A stretch of 22,189 nt of DNA from Promethearchaeota archaeon. GTDB lineage: Archaea > Asgardarchaeota > Lokiarchaeia > Sigyniarchaeales > SOKP01. Each line of letters opens with the position of its first letter. Position 1 is the first letter of the stretch. The notes under the pieces were generated by a model. The model worked only from the letters and a program-made list of their open reading frames with translations. It was not told where the DNA came from and made no database searches. The DNA is taken from assembly GCA_048938445.1 (NCBI GenBank), contig JBHLME010000073.1, forward strand, positions 1 through 22,189, given 5' to 3'. Of the stretch, positions 2,661-13,978 are shown piece by piece. A program made the position numbers and the translations under genes.

Positions 2661-4670
2661 ATGTCTGATAATAAACAGACCATTAGTGATATAAGAATCG
2701 GAGTTTATGTCTGTAGATGAGGGGTAAATATCGGAGCACACGTAGATTGCGATGCTGTCAGAGATTTTGTTGAACCATTGCCTAATGTTGTAATTGCTCG
2801 AACTAATGATTTTACTTGTAGCGATCCTGGTCAACAAACAATAAAAAATGATATTCTAGAATTAGATTTAAACAGAATCGTGGTTGCCGCTTGCACACCT
2901 AAAATTCATGAACCTACATATAGAGCAGTCTTAATGGAAGCAGGTTTGAGCCCTTATTATTTTGAAATGGTTAACATGCGGGAACATTGTTCCTTCGTGC
3001 ATCAAGATGATAAAGAAAAAGCGACTCAAAAAGCTATGAGACTCATATTAGCAGGGATAAATCGAGCTCGAGAACTTGAATCAATACCTAGAAAAGAAAT
3101 TTCTATTAAAAAAGCGGCTTTAGTTATTGGAGCAGGCATTGCAGGTATGAATGCTGCATTAGATTTAGCAAGCCAAGGAATACAGGTATACCTTGTGGAA
3201 AAGGAAGCTACAATAGGAGGCAAAATGGCACAATTAGACCGTATCTTTCCTACGGATGATTGTGGTATATGAGTTCTTGCTCCTATTATGGTTAATGCTT
3301 CAAAACATCCTAATATTGAATTATTAACATATAGCGACATAATTGAATTTAGAGGTATTACTGGAGATTATAAAGTGAAGATTCGAAAGAATCCAAGATT
3401 TGTTGATGAGTCAAAATGCACGGGTTGCGGATTATGCACGACTAAATGCCCAGTTAAGGTCCCTAATGAATTTGATAGGGGAATTGGAGAACGAAGAGCT
3501 GTATATATCCCTTTCCCACAAGCAGTACCGAAATATGCCATTATTGACAAATCGGCTTGCATAGATTGCAAAAATTGTGAGCGAATATGTCCTGCTGAAG
3601 CAATTCTTTTTGATCAAGAGCCAGAATTTTTAGATATTAATGTAGGTGCTGTAATTGTCGCAACAGGATGGGATGAATATCCAATAATCGAAAGTGGAGA
3701 ATATAAGTATGGTTTATATCCTGATGTAATTACTCAAATCGAACTTGAACGAATGTTAAGTCCAATTGGACCAACTGGAGGCCATGTATATAGAATTTCA
3801 GATGGTAAGACACCTCAAAAAGTTGCTATGATCCAGTGTGTTGGTTCAAGGACTTTACGAGGAAATCAATATTGTTCTGGAGTTTGCTGTAATGTTGCTT
3901 TAAAAAATGCTCAATTGCTCAAGCAAGAGTATCCCAACATAGAAATTATTCTCTTTTACATTGATATCAGAACGACAGATAAGAATAATGAAGAATATTA
4001 TCGTTCAATTAGAGCTCAAAAGATAACTTTCATCAAGGGAAAACCAGGAGATATCAAATTAAATGAAAACGGGACGATGAAATTATTTTATGATAATTCT
4101 TTATCGGGTGATGTATCATCATTGGATTTTGATCTTGTCGTCCTATCGACTGGAATTGTTCCTTCGAAAGGAACAAATGAAATGATTGAAACTATGGGTC
4201 TTGGAAAAGGACCTAATGGGTTTTTGACTGAAATTCATGGGTGTTTAAAGCCACAAGAAACTAAAACAATGGGAATTTATATATGTGGATGCGCTGCGGG
4301 TCCAAAGAACATTCCTTATTCCGTTTCAACAGCGCTTGCTGCTGCGAGTAAAGCTGCAACTTTACTCTCCAACGATACGATTAGACAAGAACTAATCATA
4401 GCTGAAATTAATGAAGATCTCTGTATGGGATGTCATAGATGTGAAAAGCTTTGTGAATATGAGGCAATTAAGGTAAATGCGGAGGGAATAGCGGAAGTTG
4501 ATGATCTTAAATGTAAGGGATGTGGAGTTTGTGTTACATCTTGTCCAGCTAAAGCAATAGATCTCAAATATTATCGTGAGAAACAATTTAAAGAAATAAT
4601 CAAGGGAATTGGCGCTGTTGGTATTGATTTGACTATTAAGAAAGAAGTACAAAAAGTAGGAGAGGAATAA
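2661..4670 (+). CDS. hdrA: Heterodisulfide reductase subunit A-like flavoprotein, selenoprotein (669 aa; Sec20 at TGA 2718-2720, Sec204 at TGA 3270-3272)
   Basis: One frame from ATG 2661 reads MSDNKQTISDIRIGVYVCR*GVNIG (HdrA RIGVYVCHCG motif), then VVAACTP, VIGAGIAG (FAD binding), FPTDDCGI*VLAPIM, ferredoxin motifs, QCVGSR, CSGVCC and C-terminal 2x[4Fe-4S]. ORFs 2778-3272 and 3288-4670 are in this same frame. Confidence 0.95.
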
Positions 4671-4691
4671 ACAAATTAGAAGTGATAAATT

Positions 4692-5123
4692 TTGAAACAA
4701 ATTGAAAAAGAAATACCAAGAAGAATAATTGGATTTGGTTGTGAGAAATGAGGATATTCAGCTGCCGATCTGACTGGTACGACCAGAAAATCATATTCAA
4801 CATCATTTCATCTCATTCGAGTTAGATGTACTGGAAGAATAGGAATTGATTTAATTATGGAAAGTTTTCTAAATGGCGCTGATGGTGTAGCAATAATCTC
4901 TTGAAAAAAAGGAGAATGTGAATTTGGAAGGGGAAATATGAATACTTATGACCACGTGCTCTTTTTAAAGAGACTTTTCAATCATTTAGGAATCTCAGGA
5001 GAAAGAATACAACAATATTTTTGTAGTGCTGCAGAAGTAGAAAACTTTGTATCATCAGTCAACGATATCACAAAAAAAATTGAAAGCTTACCCCCTTTAC
5101 CGAAAAATTTTAATCCGAAATGA
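4692..5123 (+). CDS. mvhD: MvhD/VhuD [2Fe-2S] hydrogenase delta subunit, selenoprotein (143 aa; Sec20 at TGA 4749-4751, Sec71 at TGA 4902-4904)
   Basis: From TTG 4692: MKQIEKEIPRRIIGFGCEK*GYSAADLTGTTRKSY...IRVRCTGRI...NGADGVAIIS*KKGECEFGRGN...LGISGERI...CSAAE. This matches the MvhD motifs CNWCSYxxAD, RVxCSGR and GADGVxxxGCxxGDC, with both TGAs at Cys positions. The start codon is inferred. Confidence 0.93.
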
Positions 5124-5183
5124 ATGATTCTTAAGAAAAAATTATAGTCTTGAGAAGACACGCCACTGCGAGGTTATTCGGAT
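5113..5183 (+). promoter_or_regulatory. SECIS element of eukaryote-like type (selenocysteine insertion RNA structure)
   Basis: ATGA at 5124-5127. Stem TTCTTAAGA (5128-5136) pairs with TCTTGAGAA (5148-5156). Apical loop starts AAAAA (5137-5141) and GA is at 5157-5158. Lower helix ATCCGAA (5113-5119) pairs with TTCGGAT (5177-5183). It lies directly 3' of two TGA-containing genes. Confidence 0.85.
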
Positions 5184-5223
5184 AATTTAAACAAATAAAT
5201 AAAAAAAGAATTTTAAACTGATA

Positions 5224-6720
5224 ATGAGTTCTGAGAGTAAAATTTCATGGAATTTTTTAAAAAATGTAAGTGATGTATTAAACTCATATAGGATTAGAGC
5301 GTTATTAGACGCAAAAAAGGACGTATTAGAATCGGGGATTTATAATGAATCTGAGTTCTATGATATCCTATTTAAAATGTTTGATGAGGAGCGATTGAAA
5401 TATGCATTTTTTGACTTTTTAAAATCAAAAAAAAGCCATGGTTTTGACTCCTTAGAACAATTTGCAAATGATAATTCTATTGAAATAACTAAAGCTTATT
5501 CTTTATTAGAATTACTAAGAAATGAAAACCTCGTTCACATTCAAGAATTAATTGATGTTATAGAAGATGGTGATGATAAGCCTCCTAAAAGAAACTTTAA
5601 AGGATTATCATTTTATATATCTAATAGTGATTTGTCCAAAATTAGATCTGTTTATGAACCTGTTAAGGTCATATTTGACTCGAAAATATGCTCTGGATGT
5701 GGTTTGTGTGCAGGAATATGTCCTGTAAATTGTATTGAAATTAATAATGGATTTGGAAAAATTGATGATGACAAATGTATAAGATGTGGTTTATGTTATT
5801 TCATTTGTCCTAGATCATTTTTACCCACTCGAGTCTTGAGAATGACTCAAGATAGTATCTCAGAAATTAAAGATTATGGGAATTTTGGACCATTTATTAA
5901 AGCATTTTGTGCTAGGACTAAGGTTAAAGAAATTGCAGAAGAATGTCAAGATGGTGGAATCTCAAGTACTTGCTTATATCATTTATTAGATTCAAAAAGA
6001 ATCGATTTTGCATTAGGTGCAACAATGAGTAAAGATCCTTGGAGACCTGAACCCATTTTAATAGAGGGAAAAGAGGATATTATTAAATCAGCAGGAACAA
6101 AGTATGTGAATAATCCAAATTTAATGTTATTAAATGATGAACGCGTTCATGGAAAAAATTTGGCTGTAGTGGGAGTTCCATGTCAAATGCAAGCATTATT
6201 AAAATCTCAAATTTATAACATTGGTTTCCCTTCATTGAATAAAATAAAATATCGAATAGGAATATTTTGTATGGAATCTTTTCCATATGCGGAGGGTTTC
6301 TTGAAAATATGTGAAAAACTTAATGTTAATGTAATTGATGTCAAAAAAACGGATATCAACAAAGGAAAATTCTTTATTTACACGAAGTCCGGTGAAGAAT
6401 TAAATATTCCCATAAAAGAAATAAGTGATTTAGCCAGAATTGACTGTGAATTTTGTCATGATTTAACCTCTGAATCTGCAGACATTTCTGTTGGTTCTAT
6501 TGGTGCTCCGGTAGGATGGAACACAGTTATTATCCGGACTGAAAAAGGCAAAGAACTATATGATGAGTTAATAGAACATGATCTGATTGAGTCAAAAGAT
6601 ATCAATGATGTTAAACCGGGATTGCCATTACTCTCTAAAATTGCTGGTAATAAACGAAAGAAATGTGAAAATCACGTTAATTCTAAAATAAATTCAAATC
6701 AAAGGTTTCCAAGATATTAA
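5224..6720 (+). CDS. FrhB/FdhB-family (F420-reactive beta subunit-like) protein with 2x[4Fe-4S] domain and ~140-aa N-terminal extension
   Basis: CSGCGLCAGICP and CIRCGLCYFICP, QDGG, SAGTKY, VGVPCQ, IGIFCMESF, CEFCHD and ADISVGSIG are FrhB hallmark motifs. Confidence 0.9.
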   Translation: MSSESKISWNFLKNVSDVLNSYRIRALLDAKKDVLESGIYNESEFYDILFKMFDEERLKYAFFDFLKSKKSHGFDSLEQFANDNSIEITKAYSLLELLRNENLVHIQELIDVIEDGDDKPPKRNFKGLSFYISNSDLSKIRSVYEPVKVIFDSKICSGCGLCAGICPVNCIEINNGFGKIDDDKCIRCGLCYFICPRSFLPTRVLRMTQDSISEIKDYGNFGPFIKAFCARTKVKEIAEECQDGGISSTCLYHLLDSKRIDFALGATMSKDPWRPEPILIEGKEDIIKSAGTKYVNNPNLMLLNDERVHGKNLAVVGVPCQMQALLKSQIYNIGFPSLNKIKYRIGIFCMESFPYAEGFLKICEKLNVNVIDVKKTDINKGKFFIYTKSGEELNIPIKEISDLARIDCEFCHDLTSESADISVGSIGAPVGWNTVIIRTEKGKELYDELIEHDLIESKDINDVKPGLPLLSKIAGNKRKKCENHVNSKINSNQRFPRY

Positions 6721-7922
6721 AAAAAGTCTGCCGATACAGGCGTTTGAATTCTTATCAAATTTTGATTATTATCCTCGAAAATAGATATAATCGCAGAGAT
6801 ATTCTGTTTGGTTTCATAGACTATTTCCTTTATTTCACCTTTCCCCCATTTATTAAATCCAGTTAAAGAAGGCGCTGTTTCAAACAAACCTTCTTGAAGA
6901 CCTGTTAGTTTTACCGTAACCCCTTTAAGATCCTGTTTTGAAATGTTTTCCATTCGAATAGTGTATTTTTCAATATCAGATTCTATTGATTTTACTTTAA
7001 TGATCTTTTGAAATTTTGATGAGATATCGCTAAATAACGATGGAGAACTACCACTATCTTTTGAAAATAGGGTAGTTTCTGCTTCTTTTTCACTTAAAGG
7101 CTGTGATACTATAGATATAGGAACATCAAATTTTATCACATCATGTCCAAATTCTGGTTTTTTCTTTCCTATGACCATGAGTGACCAATTTGAATAATCT
7201 CCGTATTTCAAACCCCAATATTCTTTTTCTGAAGGTTCCCATAAATAATTATGACTAGGTTCGGCAATCTCTGGAATTTTTAAGAGTACATACCCTTCAT
7301 CAGTATTTTTGGTCTTAACATCTCCAGCTATCGCAGGGGGTAATTCTTCAACTTTCCTGCAAGAATTGCCATATGCTTCACAATAACATACTAAATTTGC
7401 TTTTTGTAAGAGTCTTATTTCTATTTCTTTTAAATTCTCAGAATTATACAATATTTTAATGGTTTCTCCTGGCTTAAAGACATCTTTCGCAATATGTATG
7501 CTTAATCCTGAAATTGAGACTGTTACCGGATTTTGTTTGATAGTTTCGAGATTTGATTTATTGATTTTTAATTCAATTTCTCGAGTTCTCTTGATGATCA
7601 AGTCATCATCTTTATTAACAGGATTAACCATTCTAAGAAGCAATTCTACATAATATTCTAAATTCCTTTTCCTTATCGTTGGAATGACGTTATTTTTAAT
7701 GAGAATTGATTTTTCTCGGATATATTCCCCCGCCTCAAAATTGCCTGCGGAAAAAATTTCTTCTTTATTTATTTGGAGCTCTTTTATACAAGGGGTTTTC
7801 GTGATTAATTTGATACCGCTCCATAATAGTGAAGTATCTTCTTCAAAATCAAACCTTGTAGTAATGTTTAACTTGTCACCAATGACAACTGATTGATCAC
7901 TCGTATTGAGTCCCAAATTCAT
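6717..7922 (-). CDS. Arrestin-fold (alpha-arrestin/Vps26-like) protein with an extra C-terminal Ig-like domain
   Basis: FEAGEY..SILI...IPT...LEYYVEL (arrestin-N pattern); LSIHIAKDVFKPGETIKI, LLKIPEIAEPS and FDVPISI (arrestin-C pattern). The ATG at 7922 is preferred over 7976 because the upstream 18 codons look non-coding. Confidence 0.7.
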   Translation of the reverse strand: MNLGLNTSDQSVVIGDKLNITTRFDFEEDTSLLWSGIKLITKTPCIKELQINKEEIFSAGNFEAGEYIREKSILIKNNVIPTIRKRNLEYYVELLLRMVNPVNKDDDLIIKRTREIELKINKSNLETIKQNPVTVSISGLSIHIAKDVFKPGETIKILYNSENLKEIEIRLLQKANLVCYCEAYGNSCRKVEELPPAIAGDVKTKNTDEGYVLLKIPEIAEPSHNYLWEPSEKEYWGLKYGDYSNWSLMVIGKKKPEFGHDVIKFDVPISIVSQPLSEKEAETTLFSKDSGSSPSLFSDISSKFQKIIKVKSIESDIEKYTIRMENISKQDLKGVTVKLTGLQEGLFETAPSLTGFNKWGKGEIKEIVYETKQNISAIISIFEDNNQNLIRIQTPVSADFF

Positions 7923-8183
7923 GATATAATTAAATTTTACAGAATTAATGAAATTTATTGTTATGATAACAAGCATTGAATTTTATTAAAATTTTTTTAA
8001 ATAGCGATGATTTTTGAAATACTTGATTTTTCACCTTATTATTTCGAGATTTGATGAATTTATTTTGAATTAATGTAAAATTTAGTTAGAAAAAGTAAAG
8101 AAATTGTATAAAAATGAATAATATTGATAGTTTAAAATAAAAGGAATGTTATGAATATCAATATAATAATTATGGGATGAAAA

Positions 8184-8900
8184 GTGAATATTAAATTAGG
8201 AGATTCAATTAAGGCCATTCTTTTTGACCTTGATGGAACATTGATTGATTGTGATGTTAATTTGTTTACCAGAGATTACCTAAAGAGGTTGTCAACAGTT
8301 TTAGCTCCATTTATTCCGCCAAAAAAGACAATTTCTGCTTTATTAAGAGCATCTAGTGCAATTGATGAGAGTGACGGAAGCAAGATCAATATTGATGCTT
8401 TTCGAGAAATCTTTTTCTCAATAGTAAAACAACCTGAAGAAATAATCAATCCTATCATAGATAAATTCTATGAAACTGAATTTCCTAAATTACAAATACA
8501 CTTTACTACAAGACCAAATGCACGTCCTTTAATGAAGGAAATTTTTATTAAAAATTATAAAGTTGTAATAGCAACCACTCCACTTTTACCTGAAATCGCT
8601 ATACGTCAGAGATTAGACTGGGCTGGAGTAGGAGATTTCCCTTATCACCTTATTACAACGATAGAAAACAGTTATGTTTCAAAATCTTTGACAAATTTAT
8701 TATATTATAAAAATATAATAGATGAGATTGACCTTCCTGCTGAATTATGCTTAATGGTGGGGGATGAAGCAAAAGACATGATTGCAGCAAATCTGGGGTG
8801 TAAGACCTTCTTGGTTGATAGTCCCAATACAAACTTGGATGATTCAATTCCAGAGCCAACATATCACGGAACACTGGCTGACTTAAGGAATTTGATATAA
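8184..8900 (+). CDS. HAD-superfamily hydrolase
   Basis: ILFDLDGTL (motif I), IATT (motif II), SK (motif III) and MVGDEAKD (motif IV); GTG start. Confidence 0.9.
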   Translation: MNIKLGDSIKAILFDLDGTLIDCDVNLFTRDYLKRLSTVLAPFIPPKKTISALLRASSAIDESDGSKINIDAFREIFFSIVKQPEEIINPIIDKFYETEFPKLQIHFTTRPNARPLMKEIFIKNYKVVIATTPLLPEIAIRQRLDWAGVGDFPYHLITTIENSYVSKSLTNLLYYKNIIDEIDLPAELCLMVGDEAKDMIAANLGCKTFLVDSPNTNLDDSIPEPTYHGTLADLRNLI

Positions 8901-8949
8901 TTCATAAAAACTAAAAAAAAAAGAAAAAATAAAATAATTTGAATTCTCT

Positions 8950-9858
8950 CTAATCAGAATGAGCTGAGATTATTAAATCAGCAAATAATTTCATATCTTT
9001 TAAAAGAATGTTTATTTTATCTTGTGATTCCATCTCAATTTCTCCAGATTTCATGATGATAACAGAAATGATATATTTGAAGATATGTAGTTCTACTTCT
9101 TTACCATCATCATTTTGCCCTTTAAAAACCGCAGAATCCGACATGAATATATTTTCTCTTATGGTATTGCACGCATTAATATAATCTCTTAAATCGCCTC
9201 TTAGAGTCAAACCTGAACTTACACCTTGAACATTATGACTAATTACGTTTCCCGAGATATCAGTAATGATAATTTTTGCTTTGATCTCTTGAAGTTGTTT
9301 CTCAGCTTTTTCTACATGTGTTTTTAGTTCTTTGTAAGAAGAAATTAATATATCTCTAAATACCTTTGAGAGTTTATCTTGTTCATAAATACTAGTTAGC
9401 ATGTATGAAAAAGTATATTCTTTAAACATGTCTAAAAAGATTTCTTTTGCCCTTTTAACATTAGTATCTAATAACTCTTTTTGATAATTTTGGGTATCAT
9501 ATTTATGTAAAAATAATGTCACTCTAGGTTTTTCGTTATTTTGACGGTAAATTTCCAATAAATCCTTGAAATAATCTTTTGCTTCTTCAAATCTATCAGG
9601 ATCATGTAAATCTACGATAGGTATGAGTATGTCTGTACCTTTGAAAATTTCAGGTTTTTCTTTGTATTCCTTTCTATACTGTTCTTGACCTCCAAAATCA
9701 AATATACCTACTTGTAATCCCAAAAAAGGATGTCTTCTCGTTTCATAGAGTATCGTCGGGGATAATTTCTTCGTATCTTCTGGAGATTTTTCAGCAAATG
9801 CTACAGAATACAAGCTTGTCTTTCCACATCCTCCTAATCCTACTAAACTAATTTTCAT
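8950..9858 (-). CDS. Rag/Gtr1-like small GTPase with C-terminal roadblock/longin-like domain
   Basis: GLGGCGKTS (G1), LSPT (G2), FDFGGQ (G3), LHKYD (Rag-type His-containing G4), TSIY (G5). About 120 aa of C-terminal alpha/beta domain (KIIITDISGNVISH). Confidence 0.8.
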   Translation of the reverse strand: MKISLVGLGGCGKTSLYSVAFAEKSPEDTKKLSPTILYETRRHPFLGLQVGIFDFGGQEQYRKEYKEKPEIFKGTDILIPIVDLHDPDRFEEAKDYFKDLLEIYRQNNEKPRVTLFLHKYDTQNYQKELLDTNVKRAKEIFLDMFKEYTFSYMLTSIYEQDKLSKVFRDILISSYKELKTHVEKAEKQLQEIKAKIIITDISGNVISHNVQGVSSGLTLRGDLRDYINACNTIRENIFMSDSAVFKGQNDDGKEVELHIFKYIISVIIMKSGEIEMESQDKINILLKDMKLFADLIISAHSD

Positions 9859-9940
9859 CTTAATCTTCTCGTCTTTTTGATTGTTTTATAATTCTCTTTT
9901 ATATATATAATTATTTAAAAAATATTTTTCAATTTAAGGT

Positions 9941-11407
9941 TCATTTCTTTTCTGATGGCGCATATTTTACTGATCGGGAAAAAATTTTTCCATATTCTTC
10001 TGTTGATGCCTCAATTAAGACTGTTCCTTCCATACTTTCCACGGGATAATCTATTTCAACGCTTTCATAAGGAAATAATTCTTTTATTGAAGTAATCCAG
10101 GGATTCCTTTCAAAAACATCTTCGACTAATGTGGCTCTTGCTGTCAAGTTTTCCAACACGAAACCAACTGTGTTTGTAAGTGTTAAGTTTAAGATTTTCT
10201 TTTCCTCATCCAAATCTTTAGTTAAACTCAATGCTTTACGCGTTCCCATGAGTTCTTTAGCTTTTTCTGATATTGGACCAGATTCGATAGCTCGTTTTAC
10301 TTCGTCTGCTCCATTCTTTACTATGAATACTTTTCTTTTTTGAATATTATACTGCGCAACTTTCTTGAGTTTGGCCAAAAATAATACAGCGTTCAAATTT
10401 ATAGCATTGAAAGGTTCAATTTTTAAATAACCTTTTTTGGCAGCATCTTCAATGATTTCTGCTCCTAAACCTGATCTCGCAAAAACAGTATTCTTATTTG
10501 GGCCGCTTCCTACAGAACCAACTGATATATCTGCATTTTCTGCAGTCAAATCAACACAAAAATTACAGCTTGAGGATTTATATTTATGTAGTGAGGCAAT
10601 TGTATAAGATTTGACTGGTTCTCCGTTCAATTCTTCATACAAATGGAATTTTCCTTTATTTATATCCATCTTGATGATTTTATTCAAATCTAATCCATCC
10701 TTTCGAAATTTCGCATATAAAGTTTCAGGAGAAAAGCTATCCATGCAGAACAATCCAATTTTTAAAATATGAGCTCTCATGAAATATTTAAGCATTCCAT
10801 GAGGGCTGTTCATCATCTTGTCAACAGCATCGATATTACATGGCGTGCCTACAAAAGCTATTGATCTATAATCTGCGCGTATGGCGTCCATTAAAGCCTC
10901 AACTGTTTGACTATGAGTATAAATAGAACCAGCACTTTTTATCGCATCTTCTTTTGATGTTACTATCTGTGCTATTGGATACCATGGCTTATCAGGGTTT
11001 TTCATGGTTACTATCGCAGCATCAATCAGATGCTCATCAAATAAATAACATAAAAGACTTACTACTGTCCCTCCATCCTGACCTCCAATTACTTCAGGAA
11101 TTTGAGTATTTGCTACATATCCAGTTTTAAACTCTCCCATCAGTTCAATTGGGTCTGTGATAGTTCTAGGGCACTGATTATAGCAGATTCCGCATCCGGT
11201 GCACTTTCCAATCAATTTGGGTTGAGAAGTTAAATAATCCCATTCTAAGACCGGGCAAACAGCCGCACACGTCCCACACTCAGTGCAAATTCCTGTTCGA
11301 ATGATCTCTTTCATGAGCATTCCATAGGAGTCCTTCTTACCTTCGAGCTTTCTGGAAATATAATCGAAACTATAGTCATACTCAGCTTTAGATTCTTCTT
11401 CTGTCAT
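9941..11407 (-). CDS. Second FrhB-family protein with N-terminal 2x[4Fe-4S] and C-terminal Ig-like domain
   Basis: CTECGTCAAVCP and CTGCGICYNQCP, QDGG, SAGSIY, VGTPC, IGLFCMDSF, CNFCVD and ADISVGSVG. Residues ~391-488 form a beta-rich extension. Confidence 0.9.
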   Translation of the reverse strand: MTEEESKAEYDYSFDYISRKLEGKKDSYGMLMKEIIRTGICTECGTCAAVCPVLEWDYLTSQPKLIGKCTGCGICYNQCPRTITDPIELMGEFKTGYVANTQIPEVIGGQDGGTVVSLLCYLFDEHLIDAAIVTMKNPDKPWYPIAQIVTSKEDAIKSAGSIYTHSQTVEALMDAIRADYRSIAFVGTPCNIDAVDKMMNSPHGMLKYFMRAHILKIGLFCMDSFSPETLYAKFRKDGLDLNKIIKMDINKGKFHLYEELNGEPVKSYTIASLHKYKSSSCNFCVDLTAENADISVGSVGSGPNKNTVFARSGLGAEIIEDAAKKGYLKIEPFNAINLNAVLFLAKLKKVAQYNIQKRKVFIVKNGADEVKRAIESGPISEKAKELMGTRKALSLTKDLDEEKKILNLTLTNTVGFVLENLTARATLVEDVFERNPWITSIKELFPYESVEIDYPVESMEGTVLIEASTEEYGKIFSRSVKYAPSEKK

Positions 11408-12919: not shown

Positions 12920-13978
12920 ATGACATTGTCTAATTATGGTTGGCTTAATGGGATAACGGCGTTGGCAATTTTTGCGTTTGGATGTGGTTTCGGGATATAT
13001 CTTGTCTTTAAGTCAATGAAAGTAGAAGCCAAGCTTTTAACATACCTAGGTGCTGCATTTTTTTGTTTAGGATGGGGTTATTCAAACATCGTTTTTGATT
13101 TCTTGAATGTCATTTTTTCAAACAAGAACATGAACCCCACCTCTTACTTAATTGTAAATGCTATAGCCTCTTTTACGCTGATTATTGGACTTGTTTTTTT
13201 TTTCTACATAGGATTGAAATTAATAACACCAGAAAAATGGAAGTATTTATTTATCCCTTTACTTATCTGGGCGGTGTCTGGCGAATTTTTTATAATATTC
13301 TATCATGAAAGTTCGATTTCTTTTGAATATCCTGCTATTATAGGAGAAGATATTATTTACAATGAAATTATTACATCATCTCCATTTTTTATTATTTCTC
13401 TGTTAGGTATATTACTTTCATTTATGGTTAATGTAGTTGGTTTTTTGTATAAAAGTATCAAATCAAAAGGGATTTTACGCAAAAAATATGCGATTTTATC
13501 TATAGGATTCTTTTTTTACCTATTTTTTGGTGCTCTTGAGATATATTCAATTATAGAATTAGCAAAATATTTATTTAGAATCGGCGTGATAACGGGATTG
13601 TTTCTCTTTTATTTGGGTTTAAGAGAAGAGTCCGAAAAAATTAAGAGAGAAAAGACCTTAAAGGATGTAGAGGTTGCGGAATCAATTTTTAGATTAACGA
13701 AAAGGCCTGACCATCTCACTGAAGAGGAAATTATTGTTGCAATTGAAAAGCGAATATGTTTAGTATGTAAGGGAAAACTTGAACGTAAAATCTATATTTG
13801 TCCTGACTGTGGTACATTTTATTGCATTAAATGTTCAGACGCTTTGAACGAATTAGAAAACATATGCTGGGTCTGCGAGACACCGTTCGATGAATCTAAA
13901 CCAGTGAGATTGACTGAGAAAAAGGAATATGATATATTTATTGAAGGTAAAGAACAAGCGGAACCTAAAAAGAAGTGA
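12920..13978 (+). CDS. Seven-transmembrane protein with C-terminal C4C4 (RING-like) zinc finger
   Basis: Seven hydrophobic segments by eye (aa ~8-234), a charged linker, then CLVC-x10-CPDC-x4-CIKC-x10-CWVC. Confidence 0.8.
   Translation: MTLSNYGWLNGITALAIFAFGCGFGIYLVFKSMKVEAKLLTYLGAAFFCLGWGYSNIVFDFLNVIFSNKNMNPTSYLIVNAIASFTLIIGLVFFFYIGLKLITPEKWKYLFIPLLIWAVSGEFFIIFYHESSISFEYPAIIGEDIIYNEIITSSPFFIISLLGILLSFMVNVVGFLYKSIKSKGILRKKYAILSIGFFFYLFFGALEIYSIIELAKYLFRIGVITGLFLFYLGLREESEKIKREKTLKDVEVAESIFRLTKRPDHLTEEEIIVAIEKRICLVCKGKLERKIYICPDCGTFYCIKCSDALNELENICWVCETPFDESKPVRLTEKKEYDIFIEGKEQAEPKKK

Follow-up and report, generated by a model that had tools for sequence, protein, structure and literature searches.

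Asgard archaea have been reported to encode Rag-like GTPases fused to longin or roadblock domains, NPRL2-like longin proteins, and longin proteins of the GTPase-activating protein (GAP) type whose clients are unknown (PMC10933270; 10.1101/2020.10.19.343400; PMC12290439). In the available text of these reports, such genes are described as being mostly without conserved neighbourhoods, and their partners could not be read from the genome layout (PMC10933270; PMC12290439). Arrestin-domain genes have also been mentioned in Asgard genomes (bioRxiv 10.1101/2021.04.02.438162; 10.1101/2025.11.06.686947), and the available text of the work on Asgard Rag and longin proteins mentions neither FrhB, arrestin or CBS proteins nor a shared C-terminal domain (PMC10933270; 10.1101/2020.10.19.343400; PMC12290439). 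Here, we analysed a stretch of 22,189 nucleotides from a Promethearchaeota archaeon (contig JBHLME010000073.1 of assembly GCA_048938445.1; referred to as the window), in which a Rag-type GTPase gene lies between the genes for an FrhB-family Fe-S protein, FrhB2, and an arrestin-like protein, ARR. We show that one Asgard-specific immunoglobulin (Ig)-like domain family marks proteins that are encoded around, and co-distributed with, this one Rag-type GTPase.

The initial annotation of the window had proposed that FrhB2 and ARR share a C-terminal Ig-like domain, referred to here as the tail, and that both genes and the GTPase gene are on the minus strand with a HAD gene as the sole interruption. 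This layout was found to be correct. FrhB2 (9941-11407, minus strand) is a protein of 488 amino acids with an N-terminal 2x[4Fe-4S] ferredoxin part, followed by FrhB_N, FrhB_C, a linker and the C-terminal tail. The gene for the Rag/Gtr1-type small GTPase (8950-9858, minus strand, 302 amino acids), which has a C-terminal extension at approximately residues 180-302, starts 82 nucleotides downstream of FrhB2. ARR (minus strand) is predicted to consist of two beta-rich N-terminal domains and then the tail. Its open reading frame (ORF) reaches 7976, but because its homologues are 395-410 amino acids in length, its start is probably the second ATG, which gives a protein of 401 amino acids encoded at 6717-7922. 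Only a gene for a HAD-family hydrolase (8184-8900, plus strand; Pfam Hydrolase 1.3e-10) is located between the GTPase and ARR genes. In addition to FrhB2 and ARR, the tail was found on at least three other kinds of hosts, namely a protein of approximately 350 amino acids, X, an NfnB/GltD-like reductase, and a protein with four CBS domains. Full-text searches of the openly readable literature found no account joining these proteins with FrhB and no account of the shared tail, although supplements may list X (asCOG) or the cluster. The component families are known. No earlier description seems to exist of the tail family, of its spread over five hosts or of the conservation of the cluster.

The C-terminal domain of FrhB2 and ARR

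As a single pair within the window, the two tails are not similar beyond chance. The alignment on which the initial annotation relied was reproduced: its substrings are exact in both proteins, and 14 of the 50 aligned columns, among which there is a single gap, are identical. However, BLASTP of the tail pair in that register gave an E value of 3.6, and there was no significant match for either the tails or the whole proteins. The Smith-Waterman score of one tail against the other was 42, compared with 30.6 +/- 5.5 for shuffled sequences, and was reached by 4.15% of 2000 shuffles; the score of the two 50-residue segments from the annotation was reached in only 0.18% of 5000 shuffles, but these segments had been picked after looking at the sequences. 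Profiles built from Loki-type sequences only gave P=0.009 for the whole proteins, with the sole match being tail to tail, and P=0.001 with a probability of 21% for the tails. When hidden Markov models (HMMs) of the tails built from Loki-type sequences only were searched against the window's own genome at E<=10, each matched itself alone. This weak pairwise signal can be attributed to the long branches on which the Loki-type tails sit in the tail tree (1.95 and 2.3 changes per column).

Searching Asgard genomes with HMMs of the tails, as had been suggested in the initial annotation, resulted in cross-detection once distant orthologues were included. With these orthologues, hhalign aligned the ARR and FrhB2 tails over 83 columns with a probability of 98.2% (P=5.9e-14), the ARR and X tails with 97.8%, and the FrhB2 and X tails with 99.7%. 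The profile of the X family, searched over the 4.6 Mb genome at E<=1, matched four places, which were the two X copies of this genome, X1 and X2, together with the tail of FrhB2 (8.2e-8) and that of ARR (7.5e-5), and all four matches fell on the same region of the profile. Among the 8657 frames of the six-frame translation, the only matches of the broadened ARR-tail HMM other than itself were FrhB2 (8.1e-5) and X2 (4e-4), and the three broadened tail HMMs together recovered the four genes already seen with the X profile, plus a single further match that was marginal (E=2.8). The FrhB2-tail HMM matched ARR orthologues in the six-frame translations of four genomes of family f10 at 6.6e-7 to 3.7e-5. 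Furthermore, in the loci fetched for comparison, the FrhB2-tail and ARR-tail HMMs matched each other's orthologues and both matched X, and outside the window's family the FrhB2-tail profile picked up two or three neighbouring genes in the survey of 301 Asgard genomes.

The structural models are in agreement with these results. The FrhB2 tail (9962-10231, minus strand; residues 17-106 of the 112-residue piece at 9944-10279) and the ARR tail (6738-7001, minus strand; residues 9-96 of the 102-residue piece at 6720-7025) were both modelled by AlphaFold2 as Ig-like beta-sandwiches, with a mean predicted local distance difference test score of 89.1 and 86.4, respectively. Both models have seven strands in the same order and of similar lengths, with a constant offset of 8-9 residues that corresponds to the register of the initial annotation, so that the same fold foreseen for both tails is borne out. 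In the joint alignment in this register, N27, F48-E49 and Y70 of the ARR tail correspond to N36, F56-E57 and Y78 of the FrhB2 tail. Five residues or motifs were found to be kept across three host classes, namely an invariant N, the F-E pair, a later E, and the aromatic residues W and Y, while the mean column identity within each tail family was 68-69%. Since the broadened profiles align, the X profile finds both tails, and the models share fold and register, we conclude from these profiles and models that the FrhB2 tail and the ARR tail are homologous and are copies of one domain, and the claim of a shared C-terminal domain on these two proteins is therefore upheld. In the tail tree, the sequences are grouped by host protein, with 5 label changes as compared with a mean of 37.9 for shuffled labels, and therefore the fusions are old.

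The fold of the tail is that of a generic Ig-like sandwich, while by sequence it belongs to a narrow Asgard family. VIA-align gave best Z scores of 10.0 and 9.5 for the two tails, with 845-887 PDB chains at Z>=5 and 29 of the top 50 entries common to both. The structural matches by Foldseek and VIA-align included Ig-like domains of glycosidases, transglutaminase barrels, DUF3244, archaeal pilins and RhoGDI-type proteins. In Foldseek, RhoGDI was matched by both tails and UNC119, PDE-delta, NPC2 and MD-1 were matched by the FrhB2 tail, with template modelling (TM) scores of 0.44-0.61; a specific kinship to RhoGDI, UNC119 or PDE-delta was considered and dropped, because generic Ig-like domains were matched just as well. 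At the sequence level, the FrhB2 tail had no match to a Pfam family at E<=10, and the only Pfam match of the ARR tail piece, with a maximum E of 10, was FlaC_arch at E=0.064. When the ARR-tail profile was searched against 1.84 billion representative sequences, 40 matches were found at E<=0.001, which were ARR-family proteins and fragments and 10 long proteins in which the match was broken up into 3-14 short stretches, so that it probably reflects composition. This search did not reach FrhB2 tails in a library of that size, and all 120 listed matches of the FrhB2 tail region were FrhB-family proteins. The concern that the tails might be only generic Ig-like matches therefore applies to their fold, and it does not hold for the sequence family, which has no Pfam entry and yielded no more than these 40 matches.

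Gene order and distribution around the GTPase

The gene order was compared in eighty loci of ARR relatives, nearly all of which are titled Promethearchaeota or similar (Loki-type loci), and in 30 loci outside genome family f1, which were picked for holding a tail match, so that their counts are conditional on the tail. In the Loki-type loci, FrhB2 was followed by the GTPase gene at 81-129 nucleotides in all 27 loci with room to tell. The GTPase gene was located not more than 8 kb upstream of ARR in 31 of the 51 loci with sufficient flank, and the HAD gene was divergent beside ARR in 47 of the 51. The spacing between the GTPase and ARR genes ranged from 107 nucleotides in a locus without the HAD gene (L070), through approximately 950 nucleotides where only the HAD gene intervenes, as in the window, up to 6 kb. 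Similarly, when genomes of family f1 with a strong tail match were inspected by eye, 49 of 54 had the GTPase gene downstream of the FrhB2 tail at a distance of at most 130 nucleotides, and FrhB2, GTPase and ARR genes were contiguous in four further Promethearchaeota loci.

Outside family f1, the Rag orthologue adjoins a tail-bearing FrhB2 in 21 of 23 loci (the exceptions being L092 and L113), X is encoded upstream of FrhB2 in 20 of 23, on the same strand and with one gene in between, and ARR directly follows the GTPase gene on the same strand in all 14 loci holding an ARR orthologue. The full array in families f21 and f10, all on one strand, consists of genes for the CBS protein, X, a C25-type peptidase, FrhB2, the GTPase and ARR. 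Across the lineages with the tight cluster, the gene between X and FrhB2 is that of the C25 peptidase or of a CBS protein. In f10 this cluster is met by an array of HdrA-like and FrhB1 genes, as in the window, and in f21 between two and four genes for V4R-domain proteins (~425 amino acids) come after it, with glycine-cleavage P genes also nearby. The HAD gene accompanies ARR only in Loki-type genomes, and the compact clusters of other lineages lack it. The C25 (gingipain/PorU-like) peptidase, a protein of 672-871 amino acids with a carboxypeptidase-regulatory-like domain, is encoded between X and FrhB2 in every compact f21 and f10 cluster (L083, L088 and L099-L102; L084, L086, L104, L110 and L112).

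In records titled Heimdallarchaeota or Hodarchaeota, which have relatives of the GTPase, the order is X', X, CBS protein and FrhB2, convergent on the GTPase gene. In a variant of this group, a tail-bearing NfnB/GltD-like reductase ends an array that is started by the GTPase gene and continues with NuoF-like, NuoG-like and NfnA-like genes. In L115-L117 the tail-bearing NfnB/GltD-like protein replaces FrhB2, while the GTPase, X and CBS protein are retained. In L114 the four-CBS protein has the tail at its end. The second X-like gene, X' (309-322 amino acids), precedes X in L089, L105-L109, L111 and L119-L125, some of which are from records with these titles, and the same loci contain one or two more paralogous Gtr1/RagA-type GTPase genes within 8 kb.

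The distribution over the 301 sampled Asgard genomes should be read as a pattern rather than a test, since related genomes are not independent. Of these genomes, 90 have a match to the GTPase orthologue (E<=1e-50), 85 to the FrhB2 tail and 74 to the ARR tail, and the GTPase orthologue and the tails occur in the same seven genome families (f1, f3, f4, f10, f20, f21 and f24). In the other 22 or 23 families, neither the GTPase orthologue nor a tail was found, except for one marginal FrhB2-tail match in f2 (E=0.009). The record of Lokiarchaeum ossiferum and a Promethearchaeum sp. bin had only paralogous Rag-like matches (2.6e-25 and 5.9e-29 at best), with no X and no tail, and no cultured host of the system was found. 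The names of the source organisms of X homologues include Freyarchaeota/Jordarchaeia, Helarchaeota and Lokiarchaeia. Taken together, the proposed conservation of the frhB-GTPase-arrestin neighbourhood was confirmed, by the FrhB2-GTPase pair in 27 of 27 Loki-type loci and by a tight same-strand cluster in other lineages. The Loki-type lineage keeps the FrhB2-GTPase pair, whereas the HAD gene and other inserts have pushed ARR 0.1-6 kb off and X has been relocated.

Component proteins and neighbouring genes

The assignment of the GTPase to the Rag type is sound. It matches Pfam Gtr1_RagA (PF04670) at 2.2e-25 with 89.9 bits against a cut-off of 22, and its best solved relatives in a PDB search were Gtr1 and RagA chains (5.7e-20 to 1e-13). 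Its motifs GLGGCGKTS (at residue 7), DFGGQ (54) and HKYD (118) are kept in all 33 aligned orthologues; HKxD in G4 is a mark of Rag GTPases. The C-terminal extension comprises 120 residues. No second orthologue of the GTPase was found beside it in the compared Loki-type loci or in the 30 loci outside f1. The GTPase orthologue was split into two matches in two f1 genomes (G276:C4:62333-63272 and G156:C159:864-1800), one with an internal TGA, which could reflect a frameshift, a pseudogene or an assembly error.

FrhB2 was also correctly recognised in the initial annotation as an FrhB-type Fe-S protein, as both Pfam domains are above cut-off (FrhB_FdhB_C, PF04432, 1.4e-39, 135.8 bits against 23.3; FrhB_FdhB_N, PF04422, 7.3e-19, 68.1 bits against 22). 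However, it remained under the NCBIfam cut-offs for the beta subunit of F420-reducing hydrogenase (PRK09325, 207.7 against 269; TIGR03289, 165.7 against 331.5), while its paralogue FrhB1 passes the PRK09325 cut-off (274 against 269). By these profile scores FrhB2 is a member of the FrhB/FdhB family, yet not a bona fide FrhB subunit. The two paralogues are 33% identical over the core. In an alignment of FrhB2 with its homologues, twelve columns hold Cys in all 30 of 30 sequences, and these Cys residues are the predicted ligands of Fe-S clusters, with the assignment of each Cys to a cluster being likewise a prediction. F420 is a plausible substrate of FrhB2, because CofG and CofD, both above cut-off, are encoded in the window's genome.

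For the arrestin fold of ARR, which had been claimed in the initial annotation, the backing comes only from language-model features. In the Atlas, the language-model feature neighbours of ARR are Arrestin_N/C and Vps26 clusters (0.88-0.90), and the ten best named ones are all in this clan. At the level of Pfam profiles the assignment did not hold, since ARR itself reached only 2.9e-4 and 21.6 bits for Arrestin_C against a cut-off of 27.7. Homology searches found 423 homologues of ARR; the 120 listed are 395-410 amino acids in length, and a precomputed PF02752 match is present in 4 of these 120. A search of PDB sequences with the ARR profile gave an arrestin-domain protein as the best match, which was weak (E=0.044). 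ARR resembles the arrestin/Vps26/Spo0M clan in its sub-threshold Arrestin_C matches and its feature neighbours, and it differs from this clan in having a third, C-terminal Ig-like domain and in having no member at the Pfam cut-off.

For X, there was no match in Pfam, NCBIfam or PDB sequences (nothing below 0.17 in PDB), and the sources label it hypothetical. In the Atlas model of X2 (predicted TM score 0.54), the N-terminal 230 residues aligned with Folliculin clusters at a TM score of 0.54 and with NPR2/NPRL2 at 0.49-0.55, and the model also aligned to the longin parts of Asgard Arf-like GTPases. This suggests that X is a candidate folliculin/NPRL2-like longin protein and a putative regulator of a GTPase. 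Longins with GAP activity have been described as having an arginine finger and, ahead of strand 2, a G-P motif (PMC12290439). In an alignment of 9 X sequences, the residue after an invariant G is H or Q in all 9 and not P, and R105 and R109 are invariant, which makes these two residues candidates for arginine fingers. In the window's own genome, X2 (336 amino acids) ends an operon-like array of same-strand genes that overlap or are separated by small gaps (C214:48349-54002, or L098:8350-14003), which consists of an HdrA-like/MvhD fusion (848 amino acids), the small (MvhG, 253 amino acids) and large (MvhA, 433 amino acids) subunits of a NiFe-hydrogenase, and X2. The other copy, X1 (345 amino acids; C163:20027-23173, L097), is encoded beside a GNAT acetyltransferase and a pair of thiolase and OB-fold genes. 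In L085, from another genome of the same family, X is found beside a GNAT gene and a paralogous Gtr1/RagA-type GTPase gene.

On the other side of ARR, an array consisting of an HdrA-like gene, a small ORF and the FrhB1 gene is closed by FrhB1. FrhB1 (5224-6720, plus strand, 498 amino acids; identified by Pfam and by NCBIfam PRK09325) has no tail and is convergent on ARR, with the stop codons of the two genes overlapping. The HdrA-like Fe-S flavoprotein gene (2661-4670, plus strand) forms a single frame of 669 amino acids only if two in-frame TGA codons are decoded, with the frame being open if TGA is read as U (contexts ...VCR*GVN... and ...DDCGI*VLAP...), and its portion at 3288-4670 matches NCBIfam HdrA2 at 2.7e-156. 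The small ORF that follows (4692-5147, plus strand) would require three TGA read-throughs. Judging from these frames, the pair at 2661-5147 looks like the known lokiarchaeal HdrA-VhuD selenoprotein pair, here followed by FrhB1. HdrA-like homologues also adjoin FrhB1 in L084, L086, L104, L110 and L112, and the convergence of FrhB1 and ARR recurs in L001, L003 and 5 loci of family f10. In addition, a gene for a multi-pass membrane protein with a C-terminal Cys-rich, RING-like finger (12920-13978, plus strand; a weak Pfam hint to Prok-RING_1, E=0.0098) is located 1.5 kb from FrhB2, past a gene of the metallo-beta-lactamase fold.

A predicted GTPase-centred assembly and its relation to known systems

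We predict that the tail is a common docking module that gathers its hosts in one GTPase-centred assembly, and we assign a probability of about 0.5 to this reading. The tail would bind the GTPase or its putative C-terminal dimerisation domain, or other tails. The GTPase is the first candidate for the partner of the tail, because it is the constant member of the cluster without a tail, and pairing of one tail with another would be the second. A common partner is favoured over private roles of the individual tails because the hosts are interchangeable and the host-specific tail lineages are old. Within such an assembly, X may act on the GTPase as a GAP or guanine nucleotide exchange factor, the CBS protein and the Fe-S flavoenzyme may report the status of adenylates and of reducing power (F420H2, NAD(P)H, ferredoxin), and ARR may be the output adaptor. 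This more elaborate proposal, in which X as regulator, the CBS protein and flavoenzyme as inputs and ARR as output form an archaeal counterpart of Rag-GATOR1/folliculin sensing that is wired to redox, is put forward only tentatively. It is doubtful, but would be of wider consequence, that a Rag-centred sensing complex exists in several Asgard lineages, some of them Heimdallarchaeota- or Hodarchaeota-titled, into which the Ig-like domain plugs interchangeable inputs, namely an F420/NAD(P)H-linked Fe-S flavoenzyme and a CBS adenylate sensor, as well as a folliculin/NPRL2-like longin regulator and an arrestin-like output. If this were true, the logic of Rag, longin and GAP in eukaryotic nutrient signalling would predate eukaryotes and would first have read reducing power and energy charge, not amino acids.

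Several observations weigh against the docking reading. The generic fold of the tail, with 845-887 chains at Z>=5, points to no particular partner as judged from the models. In 20 of the 51 Loki-type loci with sufficient flank, the GTPase gene is beyond 8 kb of ARR. None of the 16 ARR-family members scanned reaches the Pfam arrestin cut-off, and 5 of the 16 have a sub-threshold Arrestin_C match, in the same region. In its aligned sequences, X appears to have G-H or G-Q in place of the G-P of the GAP longins. Both X copies of the window's own genome are located away from the GTPase gene, and the tail might dock on redox complexes instead. Finally, the genome is a metagenome bin with an estimated contamination of 8.17%, which is also counted here, while all features of the window are on one 22 kb contig.

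The position of the X copies leads to an alternative in which the tail docks on electron-bifurcating redox complexes of the HdrA/Mvh and Nfn/Hyd types as an assembly or regulatory cap, and the GTPase, the longin protein and ARR are recruited there. This would account for the presence of the tail on FrhB2 and on the NfnB/GltD-like subunit at the end of the NuoF-like/NuoG-like/NfnA-like array, for X2 closing the HdrA-MvhD/MvhG/MvhA operon in the window's own genome, and for the HdrA-like/FrhB1 array that is convergent on ARR in the window, L001, L003 and the 5 f10 loci. However, ARR, X and the CBS protein keep the tail without having a redox domain, and the tail-less GTPase is always present, with a family-level distribution that matches that of the tails. 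Furthermore, the f21 cluster has no Hdr or hydrogenase neighbour and has V4R and glycine-cleavage P genes instead, and we regard docking on redox complexes as unlikely. The strict adjacency of FrhB2 and GTPase genes (27 of 27 and 21 of 23 loci, and 49 of 54 f1 genomes) could also be explained if the GTPase were a maturation or assembly factor of FrhB2 that helps to insert a cofactor or Fe-S cluster, in a role like that of G3E GTPases towards metalloenzymes, with the tail merely stabilising and the ARR and longin genes being co-regulated bystanders. Since the GTPase is of the Rag/Gtr/Arf type and not of the G3E type, since it persists together with X and the CBS protein where the NfnB/GltD-like protein replaces FrhB2 (L115-L117), and since ARR follows it in all 14 non-f1 loci with an ARR orthologue, such a role is distinctly improbable.

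The fold itself suggests that the tail could be a membrane- or lipid-binding sandwich, like those of RhoGDI, PDE-delta, UNC119, ML/NPC2 or the C2-like type, by which each protein is brought to the membrane separately and without pairing. The Foldseek matches to RhoGDI, UNC119, PDE-delta, NPC2 and MD-1 (TM scores of 0.44-0.61) are in line with this, but Ig-like domains of glycosidases and transglutaminases match equally well, and the positions conserved between host classes hold polar or aromatic residues (N, F-E, E, W and Y), which would not be expected to line a hydrophobic cavity, and thus we consider membrane binding very unlikely. It could be argued that the tails have no common function at all, that is, that an old mobile Ig-like domain was fused by chance and that the clustering reflects metabolic co-regulation only, given the generic fold, the long branches of the Loki-type tails (1.95 and 2.3) and the chance-level similarity of the pair in the window. 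Such an origin is hard to reconcile with five residues or motifs kept in three host classes and with column identities of 68-69% within the families, and the clustering persists in Promethearchaeota-titled and Heimdallarchaeota- or Hodarchaeota-titled lineages, with homologues of X also in genomes named Freyarchaeota or Jordarchaeia; we hold it to be highly improbable.

The docking reading can be compared with several known systems. The GTPase chaperones RhoGDI, PDE-delta and UNC119 are similar to the tail in that an Ig-like sandwich of approximately 100 residues is found, here encoded beside a small GTPase, but the tail has no sequence relation to them and only TM scores of 0.44-0.61. Prenylation cysteines have been reported to be lacking in Asgard small GTPases, according to the available text of one study (PMC10933270). 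The array at 2661-6720, with an HdrA-like gene containing in-frame TGA, a small ORF and FrhB1, is of the same kind as the F420-linked HdrA-MvhD/VhuD-FrhB modules of lokiarchaea, and here it abuts ARR. In comparison with these modules, FrhB2 is a distinct, tail-bearing paralogue that is partnered with the GTPase rather than with HdrA.

The closest comparison is with the eukaryotic Rag machinery (RagA-D/Gtr1-2, the GATOR1 subunits NPRL2/3, folliculin-FNIP and Ragulator). As in this machinery, a Gtr1/RagA-type GTPase is encoded together with a protein, X, that has an N-terminal model similar to the longin domains of folliculin and NPR2/NPRL2, and as in eukaryotic Rag nutrient sensing, an adenylate-type sensor domain (CBS) is present in the same Asgard cluster. 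In contrast to the eukaryotic machinery, the Asgard cluster has a single GTPase gene that is not accompanied by one for a heterodimer partner, neither a TOR kinase nor a Ragulator gene was seen within the cluster, and Fe-S flavoenzymes, a C25 peptidase and an arrestin-like protein are among the partners. In addition, X appears to differ from eukaryotic longin GAPs in having G-H or G-Q rather than G-P. To our knowledge, the extra Ig-like tail that all partners other than the GTPase share has no eukaryotic counterpart. Because the gene order is conserved, because the genes co-occur in the same genome families, and because a marker domain is shared, one Rag orthologue is tied to redox enzymes and CBS proteins as well as to a longin family and an arrestin-like protein. 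Should the connection with redox enzymes prove functional, it would have a bearing on the origin of eukaryotic nutrient sensing. The proteins described here are of the same kinds, and from the same phylum, as the Rag and longin proteins already described from Asgard archaea, but with the difference that one Rag orthologue and one longin family are linked here through a cluster that is conserved, and the locus therefore offers a testable answer to the question of which GTPases the GAP-like longins of Asgard archaea serve.

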